Made by a program: the position numbers and the translations under genes
Shown here: piece after piece, positions 14,090 to 54,144 of the stretch
How the letters are laid out: each line of letters begins with the position of its first letter
How positions within the stretch are numbered: position 1 is the first letter of the stretch
Notes under the pieces: generated by a model
Told to the model about the DNA's origin: nothing
The model's input: only the letters and a program-made list of their open reading frames with translations
Databases searched by the model: none
Source: an uncultured Actinomycetota bacterium
Lineage (GTDB): Bacteria > Actinomycetota > Actinomycetes > Mycobacteriales > Mycobacteriaceae
Assembly: GCA_963828065.1 (NCBI GenBank)
Contig: CAWHDL010000011.1
Span: 2,537 to 66,536, forward strand
DNA: 64,000 nucleotides
Direction: 5' to 3'

Positions 14090-14139
14090 CAACCCGGCCT
14101 GGCAACGGATGTCGTGCCCCCGACGGCCGACCCGCACTC

Positions 14140-15443: not shown

Positions 15444-15599
15444 CAGGCGTCGAGGTTGCACGAACGGTGGCGCCGAGGCGCACGGCCCAGCTATGGGCAC
15501 TGACGGTCCGATGGCTACGCAGCCATTCCGCCCAACGTTGCTGCGCCGATCTTGCAAACTGATGACGTTGAACCCGCGGCGATCGATTTGAGGGAGCCA

Positions 15600-16148: not shown

Positions 16149-16328
16149 AAATCTCTGCCTATCGCCGGTCGCGAAGGCCCCTATTTCCCAATACATTTCC
16201 CAATCCCTGGCGATACCCATTGAGTTCGGCGACAGGGGAAATTGTCAAGTGTGGACCGACCAGACGAAGAGGGTCGTTCGGGCGCGCGTTTGCGGGTTAG
16301 GGTGTGCCGATGCAGGACCGGTGTGTGG

Positions 16329-17432: not shown

Positions 17433-17500
17433 CCACTGCGACGGGCCGCGGGGAAAACTGACGCCAATTTCACCATGTCAGCATCGGTAAGGTTGGCCGC

Positions 17501-19009: not shown

Positions 19010-19078
19010 CCCCGGAACATATTTGATAATGAAACAACCAGCGCGGACATCGTCCATCAGCGGTGTGAGGATGACAAT

Positions 19079-20401
19079 GTGACCGATCGCGACAGCGACG
19101 ACTCCAAAGAGCAGCCCGAAGAGCAGCCATCGGCCGACCCGGCACCAGAAGAATCCCCGCCGGGGTTTGCGCCGGCCCCTCGGCATACGGCGAGCGCGGT
19201 ACCGGAGCCGCCCACGACCGAACTCCCGCAGCCGGCGTTCGGGCCCAGCGTGCTCCCGTCGGAAGTCAAGACCACGGAAATCAAGACCACGGAGGCCAAG
19301 ACCGCGGAGCTTCGCCAGCGCCCGCACCCGCCGGCACCCGCACCGGCGCGCAACGGCGGCGGCTCCGGGTGGCCGACCGCGGCGGCAGAACCGCGGCCCG
19401 GCCAGCGCGGTGAAGCCCCGCCCCCGCCGGCGCCCGCGCCAACGGCCACGAACTGGTCGTACGTCGAGGGGCTGCGGGCCAGCGAGCTGGTGCCCACCCG
19501 CAAGGTGCCGCCCGGCCGGGGCTGGCGGCGGACGCTGCACTCGGCGTCGTTCGGGCTGATCAACCTGGGGCCGTCGGCCGACGAGCGTCGCCAGGCCGAG
19601 TTGGAGAACAGGATCCGGTCGCTGCTGCGCGGCCACTACAAGATCGGGGTGCTGGGCAAGGGCGGCACCGGCAAGACCACCGTCGCCGCGGTGGTCGGCT
19701 CGATTTTGGCGTCGCTGCGCCAGGACGACCGGGTGGTGGCCATCGACGCGGACACCGCGTTCGGCAAGCTGGCCAGCCGGGTGGATCCGCGGGCGGCGGG
19801 CTCCTACTGGGAGCTGGCCGCCGACCAGCACCTGCACAGCTTCGCCGACATCCGCTCGCGGGTCGGCAACAACGCCGCCGGGCTGTTCGTGCTCTCCGGC
19901 GAGGCCGCCACCGCGCGCCGCCGGGTGCTCAACCCGCAGATCTACCGGGAGGCCACCGCGCGGCTGGACAACCACTTCACCATTTCGGTGGTGGACTGCG
20001 GATCGACGATGGATTCGGCGGTCACCGCCGAGGTGCTGCGTGACCTGGATGCGCTGATCGTGGTGTCCAACCCGTGGGTGGACGCCGCGTCGGCGGCCGG
20101 GCAGACGATGGAATGGCTGGCCAACCACGGCTACACCGGGCTGCTGCACCGAACGGTGGTGGTGCTCAACGACTCTGACGGGCACGCGGACAGGCGGACC
20201 CGCTCGGTGCTCGTCGAACAGTTCTCCCGGCGCGGCCAGGTCGTCATCGAGGTGCCCTATGACGGGCATCTGCGCCCCGGCGGGGTGATCGACGTCGACC
20301 ATGAACTGGGCCGCATCACCCGGCGGCGGTTCACCGAGATCGCCGCCGCGATCGCCGAGCACTTCGTCACCACCACCGACGGGCCGCGGGAGCGCCGGTG
20401 A
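19079..20401 (+). CDS. ParA/MinD-type ATPase with Pro-rich disordered N-terminus (EspI-like)
   Basis: 440 aa, GTG start. Deviant Walker A VLGKGGTGKTTVAA. Located between the espG-side genes and eccD, as EspI-like genes are in ESX-1/ESX-2. Confidence 0.7.
   Translation: MTDRDSDDSKEQPEEQPSADPAPEESPPGFAPAPRHTASAVPEPPTTELPQPAFGPSVLPSEVKTTEIKTTEAKTAELRQRPHPPAPAPARNGGGSGWPTAAAEPRPGQRGEAPPPPAPAPTATNWSYVEGLRASELVPTRKVPPGRGWRRTLHSASFGLINLGPSADERRQAELENRIRSLLRGHYKIGVLGKGGTGKTTVAAVVGSILASLRQDDRVVAIDADTAFGKLASRVDPRAAGSYWELAADQHLHSFADIRSRVGNNAAGLFVLSGEAATARRRVLNPQIYREATARLDNHFTISVVDCGSTMDSAVTAEVLRDLDALIVVSNPWVDAASAAGQTMEWLANHGYTGLLHRTVVVLNDSDGHADRRTRSVLVEQFSRRGQVVIEVPYDGHLRPGGVIDVDHELGRITRRRFTEIAAAIAEHFVTTTDGPRERR
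19262..19306 (+). repeat. 3 x 15-bp in-frame tandem repeat
   Basis: gaagtcaagaccacg / gaaatcaagaccacg / gaggccaagaccgcg, encoding EVKTT-EIKTT-EAKTA in the disordered N-terminus of the ATPase. Confidence 0.6.
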
Positions 20402-21909
20402 CGTCCACTCGGCGCGGCCCGATGTCCACCCCGAGCAGCCAGGCTCCCCTGGTCCCGTCCTCGGGCCGGGTGTCGATCCTGGTGGGTGAGTCGCACCAGA
20501 TCGACGTGGTGCTGCCGGCGGCGGTGCCGTTGGCAGCGCTGGTCGGTCCGGCGCGCGAGGCGGTCAACCGCGACATGCGGGCCCGCGACGAGGAGGAATT
20601 GCCGCACGGGAGTTACGAATTCGTGCGCGCAGTCGGGATGACCGCGCTGTCGGGAGACGCCTCGCTGGCGGCTCAGGGTGTGGTCGACGGGGATCTACTG
20701 GCGCTGGTGCCAGCCGGTTCCGGGCAGCGTTACGGGCCCAACATCGAGAACGTCTCCACCGCGCTGGCGCGATGGGCCAAGGACCAGTTCCCGCCGGTGT
20801 CGGCGGGCGACGCCGCGCTGGTCGCGGTGGCGTTGACCGGCGCCGCGCTGGGGGTGGCGGCGCTGCTGGTGTGGCGGATGCGCTGGGCCGGCGGGGTCAC
20901 GATGCTGCCGGCGGCGGTGTTCGGCGGCGCGGCGGTGCTGCTGGCGATCGCGGCGCTGCTGTGCGGGCGCCTGGGCGCGCCGCGCGCGGCGGTCGACGGT
21001 GCAGCGTGGGCGGCTGTGATCGGCGCGGTGCTGGCCGGGGCGAGCGCGCCACCCGGCGCGCATCCGGCTGCGGCGCACGGGTTTTTGGCGGCGTTGGTGG
21101 CGTGCGTGGGGGCGCTGATGCTGGCCCGGTTCACCGGCCGGTATCAAATGGCCGCCGCCGCGGTGATCACCGTCGGGGTGGCCGCGCTGGGCACGGCCGC
21201 GACCCGGATGTTCTGGGCGGTTCCCGGGCAGCGCATCGCGGTGGTGATGCTGATCGCCGTGCTGGTGGCCGCGCGGGTCGCGCCGACGCTGGGGCTGTGG
21301 ATGGCGCGGGTGCCGCGGCAGAGCTTCGGCTCGATCACCGGCCGTGACCTGTTCGCGCGGGCTCCCGGGCAGCCCGAGGACACGCTCTCGCCGGTGGAGT
21401 CGGCGCCCCATGACATCACGTTGCGCGGCGAGCAGGTGGGTGCGGTGGCGCGCCGGTCGCACCGGGTGCTGGCCGGGGTGCTGGCCGGGATCGCGGTGGT
21501 GGAGGTGGCGGCCTCGATCGCGGCGATCACCCCCGGGCACGGCCGGCAGTGGCCGCAGGTCGCCGTCGTGGCGGTGGTGGCGCTGATCCTGGTGCTGCGG
21601 GCGCGCGCGTTTCGGGCCCGCGGCCACGCCATCACGATGGTTCTCGGGGCCGGCGCTTCGCTGTTGGCGATCCCGGCGCACTACGGGTTCGCCGCCGATC
21701 CCTCCGCCACCGCGACCGGGTTGTGGTGCGCCGCGGCGGTGCTGGCGGTGGCGGCGGGGGCGCTGGTGGCCGGCGGCGTGGTGCCGTCGCACATCTTCTC
21801 CGAGCCGGTCCGTGAGGCGGTGGAATACCTCGAGTACGTGGGCTATGCGCTGGTCGTGCCGTTCGCGGCGTGGGCGATCGGGCTGCTGCACTACGTGAGG
21901 TATCACTGA
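20398..21909 (+). CDS. eccD: ESX membrane channel component EccD
   Basis: 503 aa. N-terminal ubiquitin-like (YukD-type) segment VSILVGESHQIDVVLPAAVPLAAL followed by ~11 TM helices. GTGA overlap with the upstream gene. Confidence 0.85.
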   Translation: MTSTRRGPMSTPSSQAPLVPSSGRVSILVGESHQIDVVLPAAVPLAALVGPAREAVNRDMRARDEEELPHGSYEFVRAVGMTALSGDASLAAQGVVDGDLLALVPAGSGQRYGPNIENVSTALARWAKDQFPPVSAGDAALVAVALTGAALGVAALLVWRMRWAGGVTMLPAAVFGGAAVLLAIAALLCGRLGAPRAAVDGAAWAAVIGAVLAGASAPPGAHPAAAHGFLAALVACVGALMLARFTGRYQMAAAAVITVGVAALGTAATRMFWAVPGQRIAVVMLIAVLVAARVAPTLGLWMARVPRQSFGSITGRDLFARAPGQPEDTLSPVESAPHDITLRGEQVGAVARRSHRVLAGVLAGIAVVEVAASIAAITPGHGRQWPQVAVVAVVALILVLRARAFRARGHAITMVLGAGASLLAIPAHYGFAADPSATATGLWCAAAVLAVAAGALVAGGVVPSHIFSEPVREAVEYLEYVGYALVVPFAAWAIGLLHYVRYH

Positions 21910-23564
21910 TGGGCCCTCGCCGCGCTGCGCTGCGGGTGGGTGCGGCGCTGGCGGCGGGCGCGCTGCTGGCCGGGCATCTGCTTGCCGCCCCGGTCGCGCT
22001 GGCGGTGGCCCCTCCGGTGATCGATCCCGCGGCGCTGCCGCCCGACGACGCCCCCGGTCCGCCCGAGGAGATGCGGCAGAACCAGGCGTGCGCGCTGCCG
22101 GTGGTGGTGGCCGACCCGGACCTGACCCAGTCGGCGCCGGGCAACACCATGCTCGACGTCACCGCGGCCTGGCAGTATTCGACCGGGGCCGGGGTGACGG
22201 TGGCGCTGATCGACACCGGGGTCACCCCCAACCCGCGGTTTCCGGCGCTGTCGGCCGGCGGCGACTACGTGCAGGGGTTGCCCAACGGCGGGCTGACCGA
22301 CTGCGAAAGCCACGGCACGGTGGTGGCATCGATCATCGCCGGCGCCCCGTCGAGCCCGGCGGCCAGGCCCGTTCCGCGGCCGGCCGGGGTGGGCGCCCCG
22401 GTACTGCCGCCGCCCCCGCCGGCAAACCCGGCGCCGACCAGTGCGCCGCCGACCACACCGCCGCCATCGACGGTGACGGTGACCGCCCCCCCACCGCCTC
22501 CACCACCGCCGCCACCTGAGGAGGACGCGCCGCCGCCGCCGGATGCGCCGGCGTCAGGTCCCGCCGACGGCAAGCAGCCGCTGATCCCCGGCCCCGCGCC
22601 GGGCGCGCCGGACGGCATCGTCGGGGTCGCCCCGGACGCGGCGCTGATCTCGATCAGGCAGTCCTCGGTGGCGTTCAGTCCGGCCCGGCCCACCCCGGAG
22701 GAGGCCCAGGGCCGCCGCAAGGCCGGGGACATCATCACGCTGGCCCGCGCGATCCGGCACGCCGCCGATCTGGGGGCCAAGGTGATCAACGTGTCGCTGG
22801 CGTCGTGCATCAACGCCGCGACCCCGGTCAACCAGGACCCGTTGGGCGCCGCGGTGCGCTACGCGGCGGTGGAGAAGGACGCGGTGATCGTGGCCGCCGC
22901 CGGCAACCAGGGCGACCCCGATCAGCCCGATTGCGGGCAGAACCCGGCGTTTAACCCGCTGGACCCGGCCGATCCGCGGGACTGGGCCGGGGTGCGCACC
23001 ATCGTGACGCCGGCGTGGTTCTCCGACTACGTGCTTTCGGTGGCCGCGGTCACCCCCGACGGGCGGCCGATGCCCGATTCCATCAACGGTCCGTGGGTAT
23101 CGGTGGCCGCGCCGGGATTCCGGATCATGGGCTTGTCCAGCGTCAACGGAGCGCCGGTCAACGCGCTGCCGGACCGCGACCCGGGGATGGGTGACGGCTT
23201 CTGGGGTACCAGCTTCTCGGCGGCCTACGTGTCGGGGGTGGTGGCGCTGGTGCGCGCCAAGTTCCCCAATTTGACTGCCCACCAAGTGATCCGGCGCATC
23301 ACCGAGACCGCGCACAATCCACCGCGCGGCGTGGATAACCAGGTCGGCCACGGGGTGGTCGATGCGGTGGCGGCGCTGACCTTCGACGTTGCACCCGGCG
23401 ACCCGAGGCCCGCCGAGCGGCTCAACACCGCGCTTCATCCGTCGCCAGGGCCGCCGCGCCCGGATCTGCGGCCGCGCAACACCGCGCTGATCGGCGGGGC
23501 CGCGGTGCTGGTGGCCGCCGGTGTGATCGCGGTGGTGGTCGCGGTGCGCCGGAGGATGTCGTGA
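21909..23564 (+). CDS. mycP: mycosin (subtilisin-like ESX protease) MycP
   Basis: ATG 21909 (ATGA overlap with eccD). Signal peptide, catalytic D (ALIDTGV), H (HGTVVAS) and S (GTSFSAAYVSG), and a C-terminal TM anchor. Confidence 0.9.
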   Translation: MGPRRAALRVGAALAAGALLAGHLLAAPVALAVAPPVIDPAALPPDDAPGPPEEMRQNQACALPVVVADPDLTQSAPGNTMLDVTAAWQYSTGAGVTVALIDTGVTPNPRFPALSAGGDYVQGLPNGGLTDCESHGTVVASIIAGAPSSPAARPVPRPAGVGAPVLPPPPPANPAPTSAPPTTPPPSTVTVTAPPPPPPPPPPEEDAPPPPDAPASGPADGKQPLIPGPAPGAPDGIVGVAPDAALISIRQSSVAFSPARPTPEEAQGRRKAGDIITLARAIRHAADLGAKVINVSLASCINAATPVNQDPLGAAVRYAAVEKDAVIVAAAGNQGDPDQPDCGQNPAFNPLDPADPRDWAGVRTIVTPAWFSDYVLSVAAVTPDGRPMPDSINGPWVSVAAPGFRIMGLSSVNGAPVNALPDRDPGMGDGFWGTSFSAAYVSGVVALVRAKFPNLTAHQVIRRITETAHNPPRGVDNQVGHGVVDAVAALTFDVAPGDPRPAERLNTALHPSPGPPRPDLRPRNTALIGGAAVLVAAGVIAVVVAVRRRMS

Positions 23565-25267
23565 AGGCGCGGACCGTGGCGCTGCGTCCACGGTTGGCCG
23601 CGGTGGTGACCGCCGAGGTGGTGGCGCTGGCGGCGTTCGTGGCGCTGCCGCCGCACCGGGCGGGCTGGTGGCCGGCCACCGTGATCTCGTTGGCCGCGCT
23701 GCTGCTGCTGGTGGTGACGGTGCACGGCCGCAACGCGCCCGGCTGGGTGGCGGCGTGGGCGCGCCACCGGCGCCGGCTGCGCAGGCCCGCGCCGGTGGGT
23801 GCGGCGGTCGACGTTCCGCACGGTGCACTGGTGTGTGGGGTGCGCGTCGAGGAGCACGAGGCCCTCACCATGGTCCGGGTCAGCGGGCGACCCTATGCCC
23901 CAACGCTTTTGCGGGGCTCGACGCGGTCGGTGAGCACCAACGTCGTGCCGCTTTCGGTGCTGGTCGGGCTGTTGGATCAGCCCGGCGGTCTGCGCCTGGC
24001 CGGTATCGACGTGGTGTCCTCGGGGCAGCGGGTGCGCCGCGCCGAGGGCTACCCGCCGCTGTACAGCACGCTGCTGGCCGACCGGCCCGCGGCGGGCCGG
24101 CGAGCGACCCGGCTGGTCGTGCGCCTCGACATCACCGGCTCGGCGCCGGGTCTGGCGTACCGCTCCTCGATCGGCGCGGCCGCGGCCGCGGCCACCGAAC
24201 GCATCGTGAATGCGCTGCGCCAGCGGGGGATTCGGGCCACCGCGCTCAGCGCCGAGGAACTCGACGCCGCGCTGGCCGAACTGGGCGCGGGTCTGGTGCG
24301 CGCCCCGGCGCGCACCAGACCCGACAGTGAGGCCGACGCCGCGGACCGGCCAGCGCCCGTGCCAGTCGGTGCGGCCGCGCCCGGGTACGGCTCGGCGCCG
24401 GGCCCGCGGTCGCGCTGGCGCACCGTGCAGACCACGGCGGGGTATCTGTCGAACTACTACTTTTCCCCAGAGGACATCACGACCGCCGCGCTGAATCAGA
24501 TGTGGGCGCTGCGCAGCGACGACGTCGTTCAGACCACCAGCCTGCGCAAGGACCGCACCGGTCACCGTGATGACGATGCCGCGGTGCTGGTGTCGGCGCT
24601 GGTGCGCACCGGTGATCCGCAGCCCCCGCCGCAGCCCCCGACGCTGAACCTCAACCCGCTGCCCGGGGACCAGTACGCGGCGACCCTGCGCGCCGCGCCG
24701 ACCGCGCGCCCGCACCTGAACGTGCCGGCCCGGGACCTGGATGGCGGTGAGCCGCTGGACATTCCGATCGGCGCGACCGGGATCCTGGTCGGCGCTGCGC
24801 GCTACGACGACCCGGCCGCCAACCCACCGGTTCACGCCGACGACCTTGTGATGCTGGCGTTGACCGACCCGGACCGCGCGACTCGCATCAGCATGCAGGC
24901 CTCCGAATTCTATGTGCGCCAGCTTTTGATCCGCGCCGCGGCGGTGGGGGAGCGCATCGCGATTTACTCCCATCAGCCCGACCGGTGGAACTCGTTGACC
25001 CAGCCCAACATCGCGGTGGCCGAACGGCGCCGGCCGCCGCCGTTCGTGCCGACCATCACGGTCAACGACCGCCCCACCGCGCTGGCCGCCGCCGGGTTGT
25101 CGGCCACCGTCATCACGCTGGGCGCCGTCGGTGACGCCGGACTGGCACCGGATCTTCGCTTCGTGCAGACCTCGCCGACCACCGTGCTGATCGCCACCCC
25201 GACGCAGGAGTTGGAGGTGGCGATCGTGGCGTTCCGCCAGGAGCAGGCCTGGATGGGTCTGGCCTAG
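23561..25267 (+). CDS. eccE: ESX membrane component EccE
   Basis: 568 aa, GTGA overlap with mycP. Two N-terminal TM helices and an Arg-rich juxtamembrane segment. Position after mycP is canonical. Confidence 0.75.
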   Translation: MKARTVALRPRLAAVVTAEVVALAAFVALPPHRAGWWPATVISLAALLLLVVTVHGRNAPGWVAAWARHRRRLRRPAPVGAAVDVPHGALVCGVRVEEHEALTMVRVSGRPYAPTLLRGSTRSVSTNVVPLSVLVGLLDQPGGLRLAGIDVVSSGQRVRRAEGYPPLYSTLLADRPAAGRRATRLVVRLDITGSAPGLAYRSSIGAAAAAATERIVNALRQRGIRATALSAEELDAALAELGAGLVRAPARTRPDSEADAADRPAPVPVGAAAPGYGSAPGPRSRWRTVQTTAGYLSNYYFSPEDITTAALNQMWALRSDDVVQTTSLRKDRTGHRDDDAAVLVSALVRTGDPQPPPQPPTLNLNPLPGDQYAATLRAAPTARPHLNVPARDLDGGEPLDIPIGATGILVGAARYDDPAANPPVHADDLVMLALTDPDRATRISMQASEFYVRQLLIRAAAVGERIAIYSHQPDRWNSLTQPNIAVAERRRPPPFVPTITVNDRPTALAAAGLSATVITLGAVGDAGLAPDLRFVQTSPTTVLIATPTQELEVAIVAFRQEQAWMGLA

Positions 25268-25280
25268 CTTCAAAGTCCGC

Positions 25281-25357
25281 TGTAGGTTCCCATTTTGAGT
25301 GTCATATTCCCATTCCGGATGTCATCCCGATGTCATTTATGACATGGAAATGGGAAT
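25281..25357 (+). repeat. tnsA-proximal (Tn7R-type) end with three putative TnsB-binding sites
   Basis: Direct sites at 25285-25305 and 25306-25325 (TTCCCATTnnnnnTGTCAT) and an inverted site at 25339-25357. Palindrome ATGTCAT-TT-ATGACAT at 25330-25345. Confidence 0.65.
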
Positions 25358-25665
25358 TGTTGAAATGGAGCTGAGGTCGGCGGCGGCGAACTGGCACTGG
25401 TAACCCTCGGCCCGGAGGTGGTGACGTTTTCGTTCTGAGCTGTGGTCGCGCCGCTGTGGCCGTAGGCGCTCTCTTTGCCGCGTTGTGATCGGCTAAGGTC
25501 CCAGTGCGAGTCGGGTGTGATTTCCCGGCCCGGTGTATTGAACTGCCACATGAAATCTATGGCGTCAGTGACTGTATGGAACAACGCACGTGGGTTTGAC
25601 AACAAATTGGCGAGCACCGGAAACCCACGGATGTTGGTCTCGATCCAGGTTCACTTCGGTAAAGA

Positions 25666-26484
25666 TTGTGGTCCAGGGATTTACTGATGCCGCCTCCCAG
25701 ATCGACGATCGCAGACGCCGGTGTGGGTGTGACGAAGGCGCGGCCGATGAAGAAAAATGCCAAGAGTGTCGCTGGTTCTGCTGAGGCGTGCTTTAAGCGA
25801 TCCGACGGCCAGGTCGAGGTAGTGGCGTGGAACGACTTGGACCCCAACGCCGTAGCCGAAGGCCGGCCATGGCGGACTTTCCCTTGGTATCTCGGGCAGA
25901 AGAACTATTCAGGGCTGTATTGGTGCGCCACTGAATCCCGATTGGTCGGATACGAGTCGCGTTTGGAGTTGACTCGGCTGGTGATGGCCGACTTCGACGT
26001 GGCGGCAAAGCGGATCGTAAGTCAACCATTTCGGCTCACCGCCACCAACGGCGAAGAGCGCATTCGCCGGGTCCCCGACTATCTCGTGATTACCGAGGCC
26101 GGTGTGTTTGTAATCGACGTGACGCGCGCAAGCAAGTTGGAGAGACCCGAATTTGCTGGAGTCTTGGAGCAGACGCGCCAGATCGTGGAGTCCCGGGGGT
26201 GGATCTACGAGATCGCCAGCGAGCCCGCACGAGTCGAGTACAGCAACATCCGTTTCCTTGCCGGCTATCGGCGGCCCTGGTTGTTCAAGCCCGAAGTTCT
26301 GGCTGAGGTGAGGCAGGTCGCGCAGACGGTTCCTGAACTAACCATAGGGGAGATCAGCTCGCGTACAACGCTTCCCAGGCCGACTGCATTGCCGGCCCTG
26401 ATGCATCTGCTGTGGCGGCAAGAGTTCCGTGTTGATTTGACGCACAGACTCTCGCCGCACACGATGGTCCGGACGATGGCATGA
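25666..26484 (+). CDS. tnsA: TnsA-like transposase endonuclease subunit
   Basis: E/D/K restriction-endonuclease-like motifs (GYESRLE, VPDYLV, VIDVTRASK). ATGA overlap with tnsB. Start uncertain (TTG 25666, ATG 25687 or 25747). Confidence 0.7.
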   Translation: MWSRDLLMPPPRSTIADAGVGVTKARPMKKNAKSVAGSAEACFKRSDGQVEVVAWNDLDPNAVAEGRPWRTFPWYLGQKNYSGLYWCATESRLVGYESRLELTRLVMADFDVAAKRIVSQPFRLTATNGEERIRRVPDYLVITEAGVFVIDVTRASKLERPEFAGVLEQTRQIVESRGWIYEIASEPARVEYSNIRFLAGYRRPWLFKPEVLAEVRQVAQTVPELTIGEISSRTTLPRPTALPALMHLLWRQEFRVDLTHRLSPHTMVRTMA

Positions 26485-28661
26485 CCAATCAGGCGCCAAG
26501 TGCTCGGCGTGCCCGCTCCGCAGTGCCGGTTGGTGTCGGTACCACTTTCGCCTACGACGGCGAAACCGTCACCGTCGTCGAGATGCTCCCGACGAGTCGC
26601 GGCAACGAAGTCATGGTCGCCGACCGCGGCGGTGAACGTCGCTACCGGCTGTCGCTGCGTGAGCTGCTGGCTTCGGGGCGCGCTTCGATCATCACCATCG
26701 ACGACGGCCCGCGCAGCGACGACGACCTCGAAGTCGCCGGCGTGGTGCTGTCCAATCTCAGCAGCAGCCAACTGCGGGAGGTCACGCAGAAGGCAGACCA
26801 TGTGAGGGAGGTGCTGACCGGCTACAAATCCGGGTCTGCCAATACCGCCGCGCCGGGTGAGCCGCGAAATGAGTATGCCCCGGAGTTGTCCTTGGGTCAG
26901 CGCTACCTCGCCAAGGCACGCGAGGTCGGCCGCTCACACCGCACGGTCCGGCGGTGGGTGGCTGCCTACCTCGAGCACGGCGAGGCGGGGATCGCCGCAA
27001 CGATGTGCAGCAATCCGCTGGGGCGCACTGATCAGCGGTGGCTGGACACGGCCACCGAGATCATGATGGAGAACGCGGCGATGTCGCGGCCGAACAGGAA
27101 AAGCATCTTGATGCAAACCCGTGCCCGGTTGGCCTTGATCTATGGACCCGGTGTGGTACCCATCCCACCGAGGACGACCGCCTACAAGCGACTCGAGCAG
27201 ATCAACCGGCGCGTACCAACCTTTGACGGCAGCCGGGAACGCAATCGCGATGTCGCCGCCAGGGCGGATCGAGAGTACGGGCAGCTGCTCCCCTCTCGGC
27301 CCGGTGAATATGTGGTGATGGACACCAACTGCCTCGACGTGTTCGCGTTGGACCCGGTCACGCTGCGGTGGGTATCCGTTGAGGCTACGGTCGCGATGGA
27401 CGCCTACACCCGATGCGTCGTCGGGCTTCGCGTCACACCGACAACGAAGTCACTCGACGTCGCCGCAACTCTTTTTCAGGCGTTTCGGCCCCTCCCGGCG
27501 CCCGACTACTGGCCCGAGCATGCCGTGTGGCCCGAACACGGCATCCCGCGGGTCGTCTTCCCTGACGCAGACGCGTTGGCGGGCCGTCAGGCCGGTGTCG
27601 CCAACCCGGCGATCGTGCCGGAAACGATCGTGGTCGACCATGGCCGACCGTTCAAATGCCAACACATCAACAGCGTGTGCCAGCGGATGGGCATCTCCAT
27701 TCAGCCGGCCCGGCTCAGGCAAGGGCAGGACAAAGGAATCCTTGAGCGCTTGTTCCTGACTCTGCGGCTGGATCTACTCCAGCACCTGCCGGGCTATAAA
27801 GGACCCGATGTGTATTCGCGCGGTGTCGCGCCGGAATCCGATGCGTTCTTCTTTCTCGATGAGATCGAACAGCTGATCCGGCAATGGATCGCGGCGGTGT
27901 ATCACCACCGTCCCCACGACAGCCTGTTCGACCCCAGCGTGCCGAGGCACCGCCTGTCTCCGGCGCAGATGTTCCAGCACGGCGTGGAACGCGCCGGCTA
28001 CATCGAAGCACCGCGCGATCCCGACCTCGCCTTCGAATTTCTGCGACCGGTCAGACGCCAAATCCATCACTACGGGGTGGATATCGACAGACGCAGGTAC
28101 AACGGTCCAGGCCTGAACGGGTTCCGGGAAACTGACAGCGACTATCTCGGACAGACGCAGCGCCGCTGGCATCTGCACGTCAACCCCGACGACATCACGC
28201 GCGTGTTCTTTCGCCGCCCCGACACCCGCAAGTGGCACACCCTGCTCTGGACGAAGGCTCCGGCCGCAGAACTGCCCATGAGCGAGGATGCAGCCAAGTA
28301 CGCCCGCCGGCTTGCCGCCGCTCGCGGCACCTCCACGGAGCCCGACGCCGCGCTGGCGGCGATGTTGGAGCAATGGAATCTGGGATTGGGGATGAGCCCA
28401 GCCGAGCGACGCATCGCCCTTCGGGTGGCCCGGGAACGGGCGAGCCTTCTCGCGGACCTCGCCACCGACGACGAGTCGCAGGCCCGCGCATTCATCGCCG
28501 AGTTGCTCGCCGCCACCGCTGAGAAATCGCCACCAGCGGCAGAGGAATCGGACAGCACCGAAACACAGGACGATCTCGACAGCTACAGCGATGACACGGC
28601 CGAAAGCGACGACGACATGGACGACGACACCTACTACGCGGATGCGTTTGAAGAGTCATGA
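26481..28661 (+). CDS. tnsB: TnsB-like DDE (Mu/rve-type) transposase
   Basis: 726 aa. N-terminal HTH regions, DDE core (YVVMDTNCLDVF, IVVDHGRPFKC) and an acidic C-terminal tail. Sits between tnsA and tnsC. Confidence 0.85.
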   Translation: MTNQAPSARRARSAVPVGVGTTFAYDGETVTVVEMLPTSRGNEVMVADRGGERRYRLSLRELLASGRASIITIDDGPRSDDDLEVAGVVLSNLSSSQLREVTQKADHVREVLTGYKSGSANTAAPGEPRNEYAPELSLGQRYLAKAREVGRSHRTVRRWVAAYLEHGEAGIAATMCSNPLGRTDQRWLDTATEIMMENAAMSRPNRKSILMQTRARLALIYGPGVVPIPPRTTAYKRLEQINRRVPTFDGSRERNRDVAARADREYGQLLPSRPGEYVVMDTNCLDVFALDPVTLRWVSVEATVAMDAYTRCVVGLRVTPTTKSLDVAATLFQAFRPLPAPDYWPEHAVWPEHGIPRVVFPDADALAGRQAGVANPAIVPETIVVDHGRPFKCQHINSVCQRMGISIQPARLRQGQDKGILERLFLTLRLDLLQHLPGYKGPDVYSRGVAPESDAFFFLDEIEQLIRQWIAAVYHHRPHDSLFDPSVPRHRLSPAQMFQHGVERAGYIEAPRDPDLAFEFLRPVRRQIHHYGVDIDRRRYNGPGLNGFRETDSDYLGQTQRRWHLHVNPDDITRVFFRRPDTRKWHTLLWTKAPAAELPMSEDAAKYARRLAAARGTSTEPDAALAAMLEQWNLGLGMSPAERRIALRVARERASLLADLATDDESQARAFIAELLAATAEKSPPAAEESDSTETQDDLDSYSDDTAESDDDMDDDTYYADAFEES

Positions 28662-29863
28662 CCAGATCAGTCGCGAAACCATCGCACCGGCAGCGTAGTT
28701 CGCAAGACCCTCCACTGCGCAGCCGCAATTCCGAGAACCACGACCCAGTGGGCGCGCCAAAGGTCACGCTGGACAACCTCACAGTGTCTCGCAAGGAAGG
28801 GTTCCAAGCCAAGGCAGAGGCACCCAAGCGTGAACAACCGGAACTGTTGACAACCAGACAGCTCGCAGCGTTCAGCACCCATGCTCGCCGTGAGTACAAC
28901 GAGCAGCGCAACCTCTGGCACGCGAACCTGCCGACCATCAACACCTCACAGCTGCTCCAATTGCGCGAGGATCTCACCGACATCGTGGCCAGCAACCAGC
29001 ACGACGGTGACAAAGCCAAGGGCGCGATCGCCATCGAAGGCAGCGCCGGGATCGGGAAGACCTTCGCAACACTGGATTTCGCGTACGGCTACCACAACGA
29101 CCAGATTGCCCAGCATGGCCGCCTGACCAGGGACGGAAACGAACGATGGCCGGTCTGCCGCGTCGGTATGTCGGGCAACACCGGCATTAAGGACTTCAAC
29201 AGAGCGATGCTCGGGTTTTACAACCACGCAGGCATCAAGCGCGGCACCGCCGTGGACTTCGCCAACCGGGCACTGGACTGCGTGCTGTCGTGCGAGACGA
29301 AGCTGCTCATCGTCGACGAACTGCACTTCCTCAAACAGCGGACCACGAGCGTGCAGATCAGCAACCAGTTCAAATACATCAGCAACGAATTCCCCGTCAC
29401 CATCATCTTCATCGGTATCGGGCTGCGACAACGCGGCCTCTACAGCGACGGCACCTATGCCGACGGCATACTCGGCCAAAGCGGACGACGCATCACAGCA
29501 TTGAGGCTGCGCGAATTCACGATCGACACCCCCGAGCATCGCCGTGAATGGCGCCAACTGTTGCTGGCCATTGAGAAGCGCGTCGTACTGGCACGCAAGC
29601 ACCGGGGGATGCTGGTCGATCTGTCGTACTACCTGTTCGAACGAAGTTCGGGCCGCATCGGCCCGCTGACCACCTTGATCAATCGTGCCTGCCAACGCGC
29701 GGTCCGCACCGGCGTCGAAGGTATCGATCAGGATCTGTTCGACAGGGTCCGCACCGACGCGGCCTCCGAGCAGCAACGCCCGGAGATGCGGGTCAAGATC
29801 CGACATGCTCAGCGGGAGTTGCTGACGCCACGATCGCGCAGGCCGCGGCCGCGACCTTCGTGA
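28658..29863 (+). CDS. tnsC: TnsC-like AAA+ ATPase
   Basis: 401 aa. Walker A GSAGIGKT, Walker B LLIVDELHF. ATGA overlap with tnsB. Confidence 0.8.
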   Translation: MTRSVAKPSHRQRSSQDPPLRSRNSENHDPVGAPKVTLDNLTVSRKEGFQAKAEAPKREQPELLTTRQLAAFSTHARREYNEQRNLWHANLPTINTSQLLQLREDLTDIVASNQHDGDKAKGAIAIEGSAGIGKTFATLDFAYGYHNDQIAQHGRLTRDGNERWPVCRVGMSGNTGIKDFNRAMLGFYNHAGIKRGTAVDFANRALDCVLSCETKLLIVDELHFLKQRTTSVQISNQFKYISNEFPVTIIFIGIGLRQRGLYSDGTYADGILGQSGRRITALRLREFTIDTPEHRREWRQLLLAIEKRVVLARKHRGMLVDLSYYLFERSSGRIGPLTTLINRACQRAVRTGVEGIDQDLFDRVRTDAASEQQRPEMRVKIRHAQRELLTPRSRRPRPRPS

Positions 29864-29915
29864 ACCCCCACTCGGATCGGCCCTGGGCGCCGGGACCGGA
29901 ATCGAGCCGCGCTCG

Positions 29916-32276
29916 GTGAGACGGACACTGCCCGTGCGAGTCGAGCCCATGCCCGGCGAAGCGTTGGAGTCGTGGTTGGCCGCATTCGCCACCCGTATGA
30001 ACGCCACCTGGGGCGAGGTCCTCGACGCCGTGCTCCCCGTCGGTGCGGACGGGATCGCCAGCACCCACCGCGGAGCGGTATTGACCACAGGCCTGACCGT
30101 CGAAGAGCGGGAGAGTATCTCGACCGCCACGGAAGTCAACGTCGCTGATCTCGACGCGATGACCTTGATGGGCCATTACGGCAGCCCGATGATGACGACC
30201 GACGCGCGCACCGGCCGGGCACGGACCCCGTGGGGCTTGGTGTATCGGCAGCGGTTCTGCCCCTTCTGCATGAAGGCTGCTCCGGGCCGCCGCAAGCTCG
30301 AATGGTTCCTGCCGTGGATCGCGACCTGCATTGAACATCGCTGCTTTCTGGTCGATTCGTGCCCGCAGTGCGCTCAGCTGCAGCTCGCCGCGGACTGGTT
30401 CAGCCGCCGGCTGTATCCACATCCGGACCGCTGCTCCCGGTTGGTCAAGGGCGAGCCGCATAATCGCCGGTGCACAGCGCGGCTGTCGCGCGCTCGCCCC
30501 GATAAGCTACGACCGGGACATCCCGTGCTGACCATGCAGCAGACGCTCACCGAGCTCCTCGCCGCGGATGCAGTCGATGCGGGCGTCTACCGCGTAGCGC
30601 CGGTGTCAGCGGAGCAGCTGCTCATCGATGTGCGCGTGCTCGGGAACTGGATAGTCAGAGCACCCAACCCCACTGACGTGATCGAACTATTCGGAGGCCG
30701 CGCGACCGATCACGAGATCGGCCTGTGGCGCCGACGCCTGCACCTGCTGGCGAACACAACTCACACCTACGACGAGAACCAGGACGTGGCGAGCGCGACG
30801 CGGGTAGCGCTCGCCGCGCCGGCGGCATGGGTCGGCACCGGAGTGGCCGCAGCCCTGACCGTGCTGATGCGGCCCTCGCTCGAGGATGCCGGTCGCGCCT
30901 TCCGGGCAGCCACGTCCTCTGCACCGGCCAGGGAGATTCGATATCGGACCCGAGTCTCTGGACTGACCCACAGCGCGGCGGTGACCGCCGTGGATCTCAA
31001 GGCTAGGGCCGCGGACTTCACGGTGATCGAGGAGTTGCGCTACCGGACGTTTACTCATCTGCCGCGGCTGCCCGACACCCGGCGGTTTGCAACCAAACAC
31101 GCGATGCTGCACGCGGTGCCCACACTGTTCTGGCCCGAGTGGGCGTTCCGGCTCGACACGGAAGACTTACCGTGGGGCACCGCCCGGCAAGTGATGTCAC
31201 GGCTGCTACTCACGATCGGCTGCGTCATGTCGACACCCGAACTAGAACGACACCTGCACTCCACCGTCGGAGCTCAGCGCATCGCCGAAGCAGCCAACAA
31301 CTTTCGCGCCCATCCGAATTGGGAAGGGATCATCACCGCGCTGCTGCGGCTGCACGAACACCTGCAGGCACACCCACCGCCGATCGACTACCAGCGTCGC
31401 CGCACCCTGAACTACGATCACCTGCTGCCCGAGCAACAGTGGACACACCTGGTCGCCGAAGAAGGTCTGCGCACATCGCCGACGACCGCGGCCGCCGCGC
31501 GACTGTGGCTCATCGAACAGCTCAGCGGCGCCCCGGTGCCCAATACGCCGCAGGCGTTGCACTGCCGGGGAGTGTGCACCGACCGGATGAGGACAACCCT
31601 CACACCCCAGCTGGTCCGAGCACTTAATGCAGTCAGCGCCGACTATTTAGGAAAACAGGGAGTCTCGGGTGAGCCCCTGACCTGGGTACCGCCGCTGAGT
31701 CTCCTCGAGGGTCTGAATCTGCCTGGGAAACCGCCGGAGACGATTGAGCCGAACTCAATGTACAAACTCCTCGACGCCGGCCTTACCGTGACTGCCCTTG
31801 CCCACAGACTCGACGCATCCGTGTGGAAGGTCCGCTACCAGCTCGAACACCACCCCATTCCTAGCGCCGACGTCCGAACCTGGTCACCGAAACGGATCAA
31901 AGGACGCCGTCGAATCGGCACCCGCGAACGCGTGCGGGCATTGCTGCCCGAACAGAAGCTGCGCGACCTCCACGAACATCAAGGGTTAACCTTCGCGCAG
32001 ATCGCCGGCCGCCTCGAGCTTCCGCTGTCCTCGGGCTACTTGGCTCGGGTGGTGTCCCACCTAGCCATCGAGTACGGAATCCACCATCGTCGCCAACCGC
32101 TAGGAGAATTGATCACCGCGGATTGGATCCACCAACGCCACGTCGTCGAGCGCAGAACGCTTGGTGTGATGGCCGACGAAATCGGCGTTTCTGACTCGAC
32201 CATCGGGAAGTGGGCCCGAAAATTCGGAATCCCGGTTCTCATTGGAAGCGGCGCCCTCTGCTCGACCCGCGTGTGA
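29916..32276 (+). CDS. tniQ: TniQ/TnsD-family target selector (786 aa)
   Basis: N-terminal TniQ signature (VEPMPGEALESWLAAFA) and Cys cluster CPFC...CIEHRC...CPQC. C-terminal HTH-like segments (LTFAQIAGRL, MADEIGVSDSTIGKWARKFGI). Confidence 0.8.
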   Translation: MRRTLPVRVEPMPGEALESWLAAFATRMNATWGEVLDAVLPVGADGIASTHRGAVLTTGLTVEERESISTATEVNVADLDAMTLMGHYGSPMMTTDARTGRARTPWGLVYRQRFCPFCMKAAPGRRKLEWFLPWIATCIEHRCFLVDSCPQCAQLQLAADWFSRRLYPHPDRCSRLVKGEPHNRRCTARLSRARPDKLRPGHPVLTMQQTLTELLAADAVDAGVYRVAPVSAEQLLIDVRVLGNWIVRAPNPTDVIELFGGRATDHEIGLWRRRLHLLANTTHTYDENQDVASATRVALAAPAAWVGTGVAAALTVLMRPSLEDAGRAFRAATSSAPAREIRYRTRVSGLTHSAAVTAVDLKARAADFTVIEELRYRTFTHLPRLPDTRRFATKHAMLHAVPTLFWPEWAFRLDTEDLPWGTARQVMSRLLLTIGCVMSTPELERHLHSTVGAQRIAEAANNFRAHPNWEGIITALLRLHEHLQAHPPPIDYQRRRTLNYDHLLPEQQWTHLVAEEGLRTSPTTAAAARLWLIEQLSGAPVPNTPQALHCRGVCTDRMRTTLTPQLVRALNAVSADYLGKQGVSGEPLTWVPPLSLLEGLNLPGKPPETIEPNSMYKLLDAGLTVTALAHRLDASVWKVRYQLEHHPIPSADVRTWSPKRIKGRRRIGTRERVRALLPEQKLRDLHEHQGLTFAQIAGRLELPLSSGYLARVVSHLAIEYGIHHRRQPLGELITADWIHQRHVVERRTLGVMADEIGVSDSTIGKWARKFGIPVLIGSGALCSTRV

Positions 32277-32611
32277 CCCGCCTCCTCGAGGCACTCTCCA
32301 CTGAGCCGGGAGACTTTCCAGCAGGGATGCAGACGGCCGCCGCATGGGTGCACATCCCGCGTTTCGCCGTCGCCGGCAGCTATGGCAAGTTCACACGCGT
32401 CGCCGAGGCACTCGGATGCCGCAAAGAGCGGTTGAGCGAGCAGATCGGTCGCATCGAAGCCGATTTGGGGCACACCCTCGTCGAGCGCGCCGTGTCACGC
32501 CAACATCCGATGACGCTGACCAGCTTGGCGAGGAACTCGCACAGGCCGCCAGACGCATCGATGGACCGTGACCTCCGCGACGCGCAGGAAGAGGATTTCG
32601 CCGAACGCTAA
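32273..32611 (+). CDS. small LysR-type winged-HTH-only protein
   Basis: FAVAGSYGKFTRVAEALGCRKERLSEQIGRIEADLGHTLVER matches the LysR N-terminal HTH, but there is no effector domain. GTG 32273 overlaps the tniQ TGA (GTGA); the alternative start is ATG 32327. Confidence 0.45.
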   Translation: MTRLLEALSTEPGDFPAGMQTAAAWVHIPRFAVAGSYGKFTRVAEALGCRKERLSEQIGRIEADLGHTLVERAVSRQHPMTLTSLARNSHRPPDASMDRDLRDAQEEDFAER

Positions 32612-32761
32612 CGGGATCGCCCCGCATCGACGTCGGCGGCGGACTGAGATGTAAATCCCAACTTGAGTTCCTTACGAGGCTATAGCGGGCTCAGGCAACT
32701 ACCGGGCATACGCAGCGTCCGATCAAATGCCGCGCACATACGCGCATAGGCGTGCTAGTCT

Positions 32762-33355
32762 GTGCATATGGATGGATCGACGGCTCCCGCACTAGGCGCT
32801 CTACTGGCTAAGCACCAGATTGACCTGAGTGTCGAAGAGGTCCTCGACGAGCTGGACTCCGCGTTTGCGGCAATCCCCGGGGCAATCACCCTGTCCGCGA
32901 CAGAGGTGGATTTCCTCCGCGAGCACGCCGGACCCGGTGCAGCAGCGGTGATCGACACATGGTCGGCAGACAATGAACGTCAGGCCCGCGCCCGCATTGC
33001 GTTGCGGCAACTCACCAGCGCGGTCTCAGGATCGGTCAGCATCAAAGAAGCCGCCGCGATCCTCGGCGTCGACCGGTCCCGCGTATCGCGGCGCATCACT
33101 GGAAAAGCCTTATGGGCCTTCGACCTTCAAGGAACCCGACGCATCCCTCGCTGGCAGTTCCTTGGTGACGAACTGCTTCCCGGGTTGGACGTGATTGTGC
33201 CCGCGATACCACGTGGCACCACGCCCGCGGTTCTGGATGTGTTCATGCACACCCCACAGCCCGACTTCGACGACCGGACGCCGATCGAGCATCTGGCCGC
33301 CGGCGGCGACCCCGCATTAGTTGCCGGATTCATCGAGGATCTCGGGCGCTGGTGA
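32762..33355 (+). CDS. Xre-HTH antitoxin with C-terminal MbcA/ParS (DUF2384-like) toxin-binding domain
   Basis: HTH SIKEAAAILGVDRSRVSRRI. C-terminal ..TPIEHLAAGGDPALVAGFIEDL. GTGA overlap with the downstream RES gene. Confidence 0.75.
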   Translation: MHMDGSTAPALGALLAKHQIDLSVEEVLDELDSAFAAIPGAITLSATEVDFLREHAGPGAAAVIDTWSADNERQARARIALRQLTSAVSGSVSIKEAAAILGVDRSRVSRRITGKALWAFDLQGTRRIPRWQFLGDELLPGLDVIVPAIPRGTTPAVLDVFMHTPQPDFDDRTPIEHLAAGGDPALVAGFIEDLGRW

Positions 33356-33984
33356 ACCCACGGCCCAAACCCAAGGCGCCACGAACACCGCCCGAACAGC
33401 TCATCAGCGAACCTCACGACATCACCGACTACACCGACACGCTCTGGCGGGTCCACCGCACCGAAGGCGAGCACGTGCTGCCCTGGAACACGCTGCGCAC
33501 CCACGGGCCGCTGCCGTCGATGCGCTGGGACCCACACCCCGGTCCTCATCCGACCTCGGGGGCTGAGGCCGTCCTGTACGCCGCAGCCGATGTCGCAACC
33601 AGCCTTGCCGAGGTCTACCAGACAACGCGCGTGATCGACACCCGCGCCGGCGCGCCGACTCTCACCGCGTGGCAACCCCAACGCAGACTGCGGCTACTCG
33701 ACTTGTCGGGCACGTGGCTGCTCCGCAACACCGCATCCACTGGGTTGCTGGCCGCACCCCGATCCACATGCCGACGGTGGGCCCGCGCCATCTACACGAC
33801 CTGGCCTGAACTCGACGGTCTCTACGTCCCGTCGACTATGACCGGGCGCCCGAACATTGTGCTGTGGAATGCCGCCGCAGACTCGATACCCGCGATGCCG
33901 TTGTTCTCCCGCCCGCTCGCTCACCCGCTCGTATGGTCCATCACGCACGCGGCAGCCGCAGAGATCGGATACCACATCCTGTAA
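33352..33984 (+). CDS. RES-domain toxin (MbcT/ParT-like NAD-targeting family)
   Basis: 210 aa with conserved R (LWRVHR), E (SLAEVY) and S (LYVPSTM) positions. Paired with the Xre antitoxin. Confidence 0.8.
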   Translation: MNPRPKPKAPRTPPEQLISEPHDITDYTDTLWRVHRTEGEHVLPWNTLRTHGPLPSMRWDPHPGPHPTSGAEAVLYAAADVATSLAEVYQTTRVIDTRAGAPTLTAWQPQRRLRLLDLSGTWLLRNTASTGLLAAPRSTCRRWARAIYTTWPELDGLYVPSTMTGRPNIVLWNAAADSIPAMPLFSRPLAHPLVWSITHAAAAEIGYHIL

Positions 33985-34381
33985 CCAGTCCAGAGAAGGG
34001 GACGTCATCGCCCACAACACAACCGCCGCCGAAGGCTACGGGACCACACCCGTCGAGCGGGCACAGTTCATCGTCGACACCATCCGAATCCCCCTGGGCC
34101 GCCAGGCATGCACGCACCACCTCGACGAACTCTCATCGATCGAAGCCATCCTCGGCACGGAGGTGCTGTGGTGCCCAGCCTGCGGCACCCGCCTGGGAAG
34201 ACGGTAGGACCTGGCAGCATCGAACGAATCCGCTGTAGCCGACGGAACTGACAACGCGGAAACACCTGTGCCCAATCAAGTAGCGAAGATAAGGAGCTCC
34301 GGCGCCGACATATCGCGACATTATCGGCGGCGGCGAACGACCCGAGGAGCGCTTAGCGCAGGCTCGCGGCGATGCGAGTTG

Positions 34382-35143
34382 CTAGAACAGGTAAGCCCCG
34401 TATGGGCCAACATTGGTTGCGCCCGGCGCCATCGGGGCCACATCGATCAGATAGTCGGGCTGAGATGCCGTGAGCACTGAAAGCTCCTCTTTGACCAGTT
34501 CTTTGAGAGCATCGGTGTCATCGGGCGAATCAGTCCAGTACAGGCGCGGTTGAGAACTGTCGATGATCCCCTCGTCACGCTTGACTGCCTTTCCAAGCAA
34601 GTAGTGCAACTCGGACCCGTTGTGATACTTGATGTCTTTCTTCAGACCGACGTAGGCGACCATAGGCCGTGGTGCAGGTCGTGGCGGTGGACGTTGCGAC
34701 TGTGGAACCAATATGCCCATCTGTCTGAAACCCATGATGGCCGCTTCGCGGCCACGCTCGGCGCCCGGATTGATTTGGCTGGCTTTGCCCAGCCGCGACC
34801 TGTCGCTTCGTAGATAGGGACACACGATCGCTGAATAGACGGCGCAGGAGAAGTGAAGCGGCCCAGCATCGTCGAGTGAACGCTCGCGCTGGTACCGACG
34901 GATGTCTTCGGCATCGCCTTGCCCCCAGACTCGGTAGACAAGCGTCCCCTCCGGCATCTCGTATCCGCACACAGCGCATGCACGACGCAGCGCCAGAGCA
35001 ACAGTGCGATCATTGTCGACTTGCGCAAGCACGGGCTGGCCAGAGACCCAGCCGGCTTCGGCGAGCGCGTGGAATCCATGAGCGTCCTCGGGTAGGTCCG
35101 CGATCCACGCAGGCGGCGTCGGTGCGTCTAGGGACATGAACAA
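34382..35143 (-). CDS. hypothetical protein with Cys/His cluster (third gene of the PIN operon)
   Basis: 253 aa. CAVCGY...(37 aa)...HFSCAVYSAIVCPYL suggests a metal-binding site. Pro-rich linker, then a Lys/Asp-rich C-terminal domain. Family not recognised. Confidence 0.55.
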   Translation of the reverse strand: MFMSLDAPTPPAWIADLPEDAHGFHALAEAGWVSGQPVLAQVDNDRTVALALRRACAVCGYEMPEGTLVYRVWGQGDAEDIRRYQRERSLDDAGPLHFSCAVYSAIVCPYLRSDRSRLGKASQINPGAERGREAAIMGFRQMGILVPQSQRPPPRPAPRPMVAYVGLKKDIKYHNGSELHYLLGKAVKRDEGIIDSSQPRLYWTDSPDDTDALKELVKEELSVLTASQPDYLIDVAPMAPGATNVGPYGAYLF

Positions 35144-37296: not shown

Positions 37297-37367
37297 AACA
37301 GAGGACTGATCGTCACCGGGAGCTTGAAGTCGGCGTGTCGTCCGCGGTCTCCTACTTGTGCCGTCGG

Positions 37368-54139: not shown

Positions 54140-54144
54140 GCCAC

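Follow-up and report, generated by a model that had tools for sequence, protein, structure and literature searches.

We analysed a 64,000-nt stretch of an uncultured mycobacterial genome assembly (contig CAWHDL010000011.1, hereafter the window), in which a Tn7-like transposon, here named E1, lies directly behind eccE, the final gene of a type VII secretion (ESX) locus. Tn7-like ends of at least four types, all in one orientation, were found behind eccE in six loci (the window, L152, L151, L150, L156 and L079; EccE 68-98% identical). In all six, the insertion point adjoins eccE and leaves its coding sequence intact. An original prediction, made from the sequence of the window without database searches, had proposed the 3' end of eccE, or the spacer behind it, as the attachment site. 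Insertion in a single orientation, at a near-fixed distance and by independent events is the pattern of TnsD-type homing, a process established for Tn7 at attTn7 behind glmS. We consider it likely that the island at the tail of eccE was built by successive Tn7-like insertions at a single docking site through homing of this style. The features on which this reading rests are the following.

23561-25267 (+): eccE; Pfam EccE, TIGR03923 at 291.7 bits (cut-off 108)
25220-25253 (+): candidate recognition motif of 34 nt in the eccE coding sequence, GCGATCGTGGCGTTCCGCCAGGAGCAGGCCTGGA, ending 27 nt before the insertion point
25268-25280: spacer of 13 nt from the eccE stop to the terminus, CTTCAAAGTCCGC
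25281-25360 (+): tnsA-proximal end of E1 (Tn7R-type); TGT terminus, a contiguous pair of direct TnsB-type sites, then a half-site and a single inverted site
25666-26484 (+): tnsA, actinobacterial TnsA-like endonuclease subunit; NCBIfam NF033179 (TnsA_like_Actin) at 218.4 bits (cut-off 110)
26481-28661 (+): tnsB, DDE transposase; phmmer match to solved TnsB chains, E = 8e-12
28658-29863 (+): tnsC, AAA+ regulator of the TniB family; Pfam TniB at 39.4 bits, above cut-off
29916-32611 (+): tniQ, TnsD-like, 'Q1' type, pseudogene; Pfam TniQ at 64.7 bits, above cut-off
54030-54139 (-): distal end of E1 (Tn7L-type), ending ...CCTACA; its last 25 nt form the terminal inverted repeat
54140-54144: spacer of 5 nt, GCCAC, between E1 and E2
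54145-54222 (+): E2, another end of the tnsA-proximal type (direct orientation), found by repeat search and starting TGTCGGTTCCCATTTCGGATGTCCAATTCCCATTTCAAATGTCC

Boundaries and transposition genes of E1

E1 extends from 25281 to 54139 (28,859 bp) and starts 13 nt after the eccE stop codon, a TAG at 25265-25267; despite the insertion, the coding sequence of eccE is intact. The proximal terminus, TGTAGGTTCCCATTTTGAGTGTCAT, begins at 25281, and this is exactly where homology with L001, a Mycobacterium metagenome-assembled genome, starts. GC content drops at the junction, from ~0.74 in the ESX genes to ~0.63 in the element. The original prediction had counted two more copies of a ~20-nt motif behind the terminus: the second direct copy (25307-25325) stands, and it is followed by a half-site, GATGTCAT, at ~25330-25338 and then by an inverted copy at 25342-25360. 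A degenerate form of this motif matched the window five times compared to 1.1 matches expected, and none of 100 shuffled sequences reached five. At the other side, the distal terminus (54115-54139) reads TGTAGGGTCGCAAATTTCGTGTCAT on the minus strand and matches the proximal terminus, inverted, at 19 of 25 positions; this distal end resembles those of many metagenome loci and of L139, a more diverged relative. E1 is thus bounded by 5'-TGT...ACA-3' termini with several internal TnsB-type repeats, as Tn7-like elements are. A chance origin of the ends was excluded, as motif and termini surpassed the shuffled controls and homology with L001 starts at the terminus. The distal end also corrects the expectation that an empty site would join eccE to sequence right of ~54227: E1 ends at 54139, and 54145-54222 is the end of another transposon.

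Our results confirmed the positions of the eccE stop and of the terminus as well as the arrangement of tnsA, tnsB, tnsC and tniQ, which are contiguous and all co-directional with eccE, the tnsA/tnsB and tnsB/tnsC overlaps both being ATGA. The tnsB product was also matched to TnsB of Tn7 by phmmer (E = 4e-5), and its Pfam rve hit was weak (23.7 bits, below the cut-off of 32.6). By gene content and end structure, E1 is a TnsA-containing Tn7-like transposon. The 786-aa open reading frame at 29916-32276, previously taken for a TniQ/TnsD-like gene, proved to be the frameshifted part of a gene of ~895 codons: a 1-nt deletion at ~32238 moves the C-terminal LysR-type helix-turn-helix (HTH) to another frame (32210-32611), and the comparison with L001 revealed two more indels of 1 nt each, a deletion at 32524 and an insertion at 32557. 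Indels relative to L001 are confined to tniQ, with none in tnsA, tnsB or tnsC. Intact orthologs of tniQ encode 892-898 aa, and the protein P0001 (92% identical, 892 aa) retains the C-terminal LysR-type HTH. With tniQ frameshifted, E1 has no intact large TniQ/TnsD protein with a C-terminal DNA-binding region. Searched against the PDB, TniQ gave no match outside the LysR-type HTH.

As the original prediction had stated, no CRISPR-like array was detected in the window (Tandem Repeats Finder and repeat search), and no cas or tnsE-like gene was found among the cargo open reading frames tested against Pfam, three of which (34382-35143, 36084-36758 and 49554-50735, all on the minus strand) had no Pfam hit. 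On the basis of the open reading frames and repeats tested, targeting by a CRISPR-associated transposon (CAST) mechanism or by TnsE was rejected.

The ESX locus upstream of E1 is ordered espG-eccB-MinD/ParA-eccD-mycP-eccE, which is the gene order of the Mycobacterium branderi and M. vanbaalenii plasmids. A gene for a MinD/ParA-like ATPase lies between eccB and eccD at 19079-20401 (+), likewise in all sequenced plasmid ESX loci that we examined, and its presence at this position is a marker of a plasmid-type ESX locus. An exact-sequence look-up of the EccE protein of the window returned no record.

Occupied and unoccupied eccE sites

We searched metagenomes with a terminus pattern of 17 specified bases. 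Many of the matches were distal-type ends or chance hits, and only junctions checked in the sequence, among the matches listed, were used. Empty sites were expected in the loci with the closest EccE homologs, L152 (98% aa identity), L151 and L150 (92% each) and L156 (73%); instead, each of them carries another Tn7-like proximal end behind eccE. True empty sites were found among the plasmids of PLSDB. An occupied site was also found in L079, a 1.1-kb soil contig whose EccE is 68% identical to that of the window and which has a different proximal end behind eccE.

The C-terminus of EccE, ...QEQAWMGLA followed by the stop, is the same in the window, L152 and L151; the spacer of L152 is that of the window except for one base, and the insertion position is equal. 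In both the window and L079, the terminus lies exactly 27 nt past a shared coding motif, GCGATCGTGGCGTTCCGNCAGGAGCAGGCCTGGA, whereas the distance from the eccE stop to the terminus is 13 nt in the window and 19 nt in L079. Across the six loci the motif-to-terminus distances are 27, 27, 28, 31, 27 and 36 nt, i.e., 27-28 nt in four of them.

Divergence of the ends does not follow divergence of the gene that they abut. Over its last 600 nt, eccE is 97-98% identical between the window, L152 and L151, whereas the abutting ends share just 64-75% identity; conversely, the ends of L150 and L156 are 99% identical and stand behind eccE genes only 80% identical, with different spacers. The differences start at the first base of the terminus and are therefore best accounted for by transposition, rather than by recombination or vertical descent.

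L152, L150 and L156 carry a 2.8-kb mini-element devoid of tns genes; in L150 and L156, another mini-element stands in tandem with it. L151 carries a 9.4-kb tns-less element (11722-21155), behind which its own proximal end is repeated in truncated form. Given the lack of tns genes, the mini-elements must be moved in trans by an autonomous element, and none was found. Altogether, the tns-less elements behind eccE measure 1.6, 2.8 and 9.4 kb (L150, 11704-16088; L156, 11733 onward), and they carry enoyl-CoA hydratase, glyoxalase, DUF4331 or redox genes. Tandem layering, in which a distal end is followed after 5 nt by a proximal end, was observed in the window and likewise in L150, L151 and L156; among the matches listed, this layout is common in metagenome junctions.

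Nine loci have no Tn7-like end behind eccE: eight sequenced ESX plasmids (from M. branderi, M. vanbaalenii, M. poriferae, Aquia_216, ELW1 and JS623, M. avium pP4-4a and CBMA213) and L157. Most of the unoccupied plasmids have conjugation-type genes after eccE, coding for an FtsK/SpoIIIE protein and a TraM-recognition coupling protein. In L157 the eccE motif is diverged, and a Tn3-family transposon (11731-15349; DUF4158/DDE_Tnp_Tn3 transposase and resolvase) lies 6 nt past the eccE stop. Mismatches to the 34-nt motif were distributed as follows.

Occupied loci (n = 6): 0-3 mismatches
Unoccupied loci (n = 8): 4-8 mismatches
Unoccupied M. branderi plasmid (n = 1): 0 mismatches

Hence six of the seven loci with three mismatches or fewer are occupied, compared to none of the eight with four or more, a correlation that fits sequence-specific recognition of the motif. 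In the M. branderi plasmid, the motif is perfect and the site naturally empty.

Relatives at dnaB and the choice of target

The nearest relatives of E1 are found at another gene. A scan based on an alignment of TniQ, with one genome per species, yielded 16 loci, none of which (0/16) encodes EccE; a search of PLSDB with Q1 was uninformative, its best match being just 34% identical. L001 is 94.9% identical to the window at the nucleotide level, exactly from 25281 to 32626, and the products of tnsA, tnsB and tniQ share 92%, 96% and 92% aa identity with their L001 counterparts. The left flank of L001 is entirely unlike that of the window: it is the end of an intein-containing dnaB gene, whose stop codon is followed by 10 nt and then by the terminus (1038-1051). 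The element of L001 is also present in the metagenome loci L082 and L111, and in L111 the upstream genes have the chromosomal order rpsF-ssb-rpsR-rplI-dnaB. The more diverged L139 is docked at dnaB (~5651-5664) in the same chromosomal synteny as L111; L065 and L089 are dnaB-docked as well, and related elements are also docked at dnaB genes carried by plasmids in M. alvei and M. aubagnense. The dnaB-docked termini lie 6-11 nt past the stop codon (L139, L065, L089, L144 at 7095, L145 at 7039, and L001). The 3' end of dnaB, chromosomal as well as plasmid-borne, is therefore a recurrent docking site for this family. Other, more distant relatives were found behind a DEAD/DEAH helicase gene (M. avium pP7a), behind a lytic transglycosylase gene (M. 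vanbaalenii plasmid) and at mce-associated genes (L155).

These observations bear on the original prediction in two ways. The proposal that the 3' end of eccE serves as the attachment site holds insofar as several elements start there in related and diverged loci, and has to be qualified insofar as the closest ortholog of E1 sits at dnaB. Furthermore, orthologs at many unrelated loci had been named as an outcome that would speak against the proposal, and such placements were found in part, at dnaB and at the DEAD-box helicase, lytic transglycosylase and mce-associated genes.

Complete members of the family carry two selectors. A second tniQ gene (Q2), usually convergent, is located just past Q1 in L001, L139, L155 and several others; no Q2 was found in the window by comparison with L001. 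The Xre/RES stretch of E1 (32647-34325) is 93% identical at the nucleotide level to cargo of L139, in which the tniQ2 region lies between tniQ1 and the Xre/RES pair. As the E1 junction at 32626/32647 skips that region, tniQ2 was, judging from this alignment, most likely lost by deletion. The Xre antitoxin/RES toxin pair itself occupies 32762-33984 in the window and 16895-18577 in L139; since it is 93% identical and the transposition modules of E1 and L139 are only ~70% identical, cargo has been exchanged between elements. With its sole tniQ frameshifted and the second one deleted, E1 is probably defective and immobile on its own. Targeting by the TniQ protein seen here, as originally proposed, is consequently doubtful: tniQ is frameshifted, and the second tniQ of intact relatives is lost.

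Because sister copies lie at eccE (E1) and dnaB (L001) and the complete version has two TniQ genes, a two-address element is suggested. The E1 lineage probably alternates between the dnaB and eccE sites, complete members carrying two TniQ selectors. It is conceivable, and we advance it tentatively, that targeting in complete members relies on protein alone, that one large TniQ homes to the 3' end of chromosomal dnaB as a safe harbour and the other to the 3' end of eccE in plasmid ESX loci, and that such elements also mobilise the tns-less mini-elements piling up behind eccE. Mycobacterial conjugative plasmids need an ESX secretion system for transfer. If this two-address reading is true, plasmids would be boarded by reading a gene of their conjugation machinery, and not through replication forks, as with TnsE, or guide RNAs, as with CASTs. 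There is a hint, on which we do not rely, as to which selector serves which site. L144 and L145, docked at plasmid-borne dnaB with a single TniQ seen in each, score better with Q2 than with Q1, a lead that would assign Q2 to dnaB and Q1, the one kept in E1, to eccE. However, a LysR-type tail, as Q1 typically has, is present in the TniQ of L144, and relatives with Q1 occur at other loci too.

For homing at eccE we propose the following sequence of events, modelled on TnsD at glmS. A TnsD-like TniQ protein would bind the motif conserved within the final ~60 coding nt of eccE and recruit TnsC and the TnsA/TnsB transposase. Insertion would then occur in one orientation, with the tnsA-proximal end toward eccE, ~27 nt past the motif and beyond the stop codon, so that eccE is spared. 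Each newcomer would insert between eccE and the prior resident, and older elements would be pushed outward and decay; E1 would be the newest layer and the end at 54145-54222 an older one.

Several observations weigh against homing at eccE. The nearest relative of E1 docks behind chromosomal dnaB, not eccE, and with 92% identity between the TniQ of E1 and that of the dnaB-docked element, no eccE-specific selector emerges. E1 is the only autonomous-looking element among the eccE sites seen, the other eccE-docked elements being without tns genes. The flanks of E1, TCCGC on the left and GCCAC on the right, are identical at 3/5 positions and form no clean 5-bp target-site duplication, and a duplication sought at L139 was not found either; the right flank of E1 adjoins the end of another element, and later events may have masked a duplication. 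The insertion distance is not strictly fixed, ranging from 27 to 36 nt. The correlation between motif and occupancy is inflated by the kinship of several occupied loci and by how they were found. All eight sequenced ESX plasmids examined are unoccupied, and a tblastn search of PLSDB with a chimeric query (EccE C-terminus plus TnsA) revealed no plasmid with eccE beside tnsA. Moreover, 'plasmid-type' describes the order of the ESX genes and not the replicon to which the window belongs. Because of the missing target-site duplication and the broken selector, we treat E1 itself with caution: its insertion may have been assisted in trans, or recombination may have reshaped it.

Part of this evidence could also be explained if E1 never recognised eccE and landed beside, or was exchanged into, a resident Tn7-like element, only the older lineage (of the E2/L151/L079 type) being specific for eccE. 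Insertion beside the older end, use of a co-resident's selector or homologous recombination between copies of E1 could each have led to this outcome. The position of the closest relative at dnaB, the flanks without a duplication and the absence of an intact selector from E1 are all compatible with such a history, as is the fact that the ends with TGTCC sites (E2, L151 and L079) form a related eccE group with 72-84% identity. However, the terminus of E1 lies at the same nucleotide as that of the unrelated L152 mini-element, behind the same spacer, and repeated use of one site would be expected to leave a gap such as the 5 nt between E1 and the older end. In addition, we know of no mechanism by which Tn7-like elements target foreign ends, and Tn7 ends normally repel insertion through target immunity. 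We therefore regard arrival by way of a resident element as unlikely, though it deserves more weight than the two explanations that follow. That mobile DNA of any kind gathers and is tolerated behind eccE because this intergenic region is a permissive hot spot, with no sequence-specific homing, is very improbable. The Tn3-family transposon at 6 nt past the stop in L157, the insertion sequence (IS) elements in and around the island and the variable distance from motif to insertion would agree with it, but not the shared orientation of at least four different Tn7-like ends, nor the distance of 27-28 nt in four of six insertions even though the spacers are unrelated and stop positions differ. Occupancy also follows motif conservation, and the same family docks equally precisely 6-11 nt behind dnaB. 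Least credible of all is one ancient insertion behind eccE that was inherited vertically and whose diverged descendants are the present ends. The window, L150, L151 and L152 are indeed close relatives, with eccE 91-98% identical, but the divergence of ends and backbone is decoupled in both directions (97-98% with 64-75%, and 80% with 99%), cargo is wholly different between loci, and single loci contain tandem layers.

Successive homing to eccE thus remains our preferred reading, and by analogy with Tn7 its mechanism would best be seen as the known TnsD-type one with a new address. As with Tn7 of Escherichia coli, E1 encodes a heteromeric transposase of TnsA and TnsB, TnsC as regulator and a large selector of the TniQ family; it has TGT...ACA termini, whose TnsB-type repeats lie close together on the tnsA side and are spaced out on the other; and its kind inserts in one orientation, shortly past the stop of a conserved gene with a conserved coding 3' end, and forms tandem arrays. 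It differs from Tn7 in its target (eccE, or dnaB for sister copies, compared to glmS), in having no TnsE, in its very distant proteins and in the target-site duplication, of which the flanks of E1 give no clear sign. A parallel in strategy is offered by the 'res-site hunters' Tn5053/Tn402 (TniABQ), which depend on a TniQ-family protein and seek a conserved plasmid function, promoting their spread with plasmids; unlike E1, they have no TnsA, need a plasmid resolvase bound at res and insert in res or close to it, not at a fixed distance behind a protein-coding gene.

Faure et al. (2023; PMC10293859) described 1,048 loci with dual tniQ-tnsD genes and read them as offering two options for target selection. 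L001, L139 and L155 likewise have two TniQ-family genes by tnsC. They differ in that both selectors are large (~700-900 aa) and convergent, compared to one large and one small in that article, and the copy in the window differs further, having lost one selector and kept the other in broken form. The main text of PMC10293859 has no occurrence of dnaB, type VII or Mycobacteri. E1 shares its host phylum, its gene set, the TnsA_like_Actin fit and a cargo rich in toxin-antitoxin and other accessory genes with the Actinobacteria-dominated Tn7-like clade of Benler et al. (2021; PMC8649781), of which, according to that survey, no member has been characterised experimentally; dnaB and 'type VII' do not appear in its main text or in one supplementary file, nor does EccE in that supplementary file, so that the docking sites found here add to it. 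A 2024 preprint deals with Streptomyces Tn7-like elements at telomeres and does not cover eccE or dnaB sites. Searchable papers yielded nothing relevant that links Tn7-like elements to eccE or dnaB, which is no proof of novelty. The original prediction that the site is not among described Tn7-like att sites agrees with this, as no searchable paper describes it, and eccE of a plasmid-type ESX locus, at which Tn7-like elements have docked repeatedly, is an apparently undescribed site.

Mycobacteria would offer two new docking sites of natural origin, one at dnaB and one at eccE of plasmid-type ESX loci. Tn7-like elements are valued for their predictable insertion addresses, and the actinobacterial clade is experimentally untouched; the two sites could serve to integrate DNA in single copy and defined orientation, both in mycobacteria and in their conjugative plasmids. 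If homing at eccE is real, transposons would reach mobile plasmids by a new sequence-specific route, the reading of a secretion/conjugation gene of the plasmid, which would also explain how islands of accessory genes build up beside ESX loci.

Cargo, internal duplication and the E2 end

The cargo of E1 and a duplication within it are summarised below.

32647-54029: cargo, identified by Pfam; Xre/RES pair, PIN, IS110 transposase, HD and metallo-beta-lactamase proteins
32647-54029: remaining cargo; 1816-aa kinase/GAF/histidine-kinase protein, molybdopterin oxidoreductase, MOSC, ferritin-like and aconitase-family proteins
47212-47772 (+): internal duplicate of an aconitase-family 3' end and inner distal end; direct copy of ~560 bp, 92-98% identical to 53507-54072

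The upstream copy of the duplicate breaks off abruptly at 47772 and amounts to a decapitated internal distal end. Because such an end lies inside E1, the element is probably two tandem elements fused. The copy in the window is probably a decaying passenger and a member of a composite island; its value lies in pointing to the docking site, not in being a working element.

The ~78 nt of E2 are identical to an end in the metagenome locus L033, after which the two sequences diverge. No tns genes lie behind E2, where genes for a P-type ATPase, a phosphoketolase and a universal stress protein are found on the other strand (54482-60585, -), and no distal end matching E2 was found in the rest of the window (54223-64000). 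E2 is a remnant, or else it begins an older, non-autonomous element that lacks tns genes; the block of P-type ATPase, phosphoketolase and stress protein genes may be cargo of the older element. The phosphoketolase gene is 74% identical at the nucleotide level to a gene beside Tn7-like ends in L019/L069.

Other observations concern single cargo genes and IS elements. The 1816-aa protein (41317-46767, +) joins a Ser/Thr kinase to an AAA_16 ATPase, to GAF domains and to a histidine-kinase module (HisKA_3/HATPase), and its kinase domain matches the PD-T4-6 defence models of PADLOC, which may reflect generic kinase similarity. The IS110-family transposase gene lies at 37335-38546 and is followed by an IS3 orfA-like fragment (~38606-38900); a non-coding segment at 41083-41271 resembles the upstream region of an IS110-family transposase in the metagenome locus L021. 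Beyond E2, an IS3-type integrase-core gene is located at 61249-62034. Finally, another junction recurred in the metagenome loci L028, L067, L105, L120, L073 and L075, where Tn7-like ends lie behind a gene ending ...GGCTTCACCCGCCC (stop), with the protein tail ...GFTRP.

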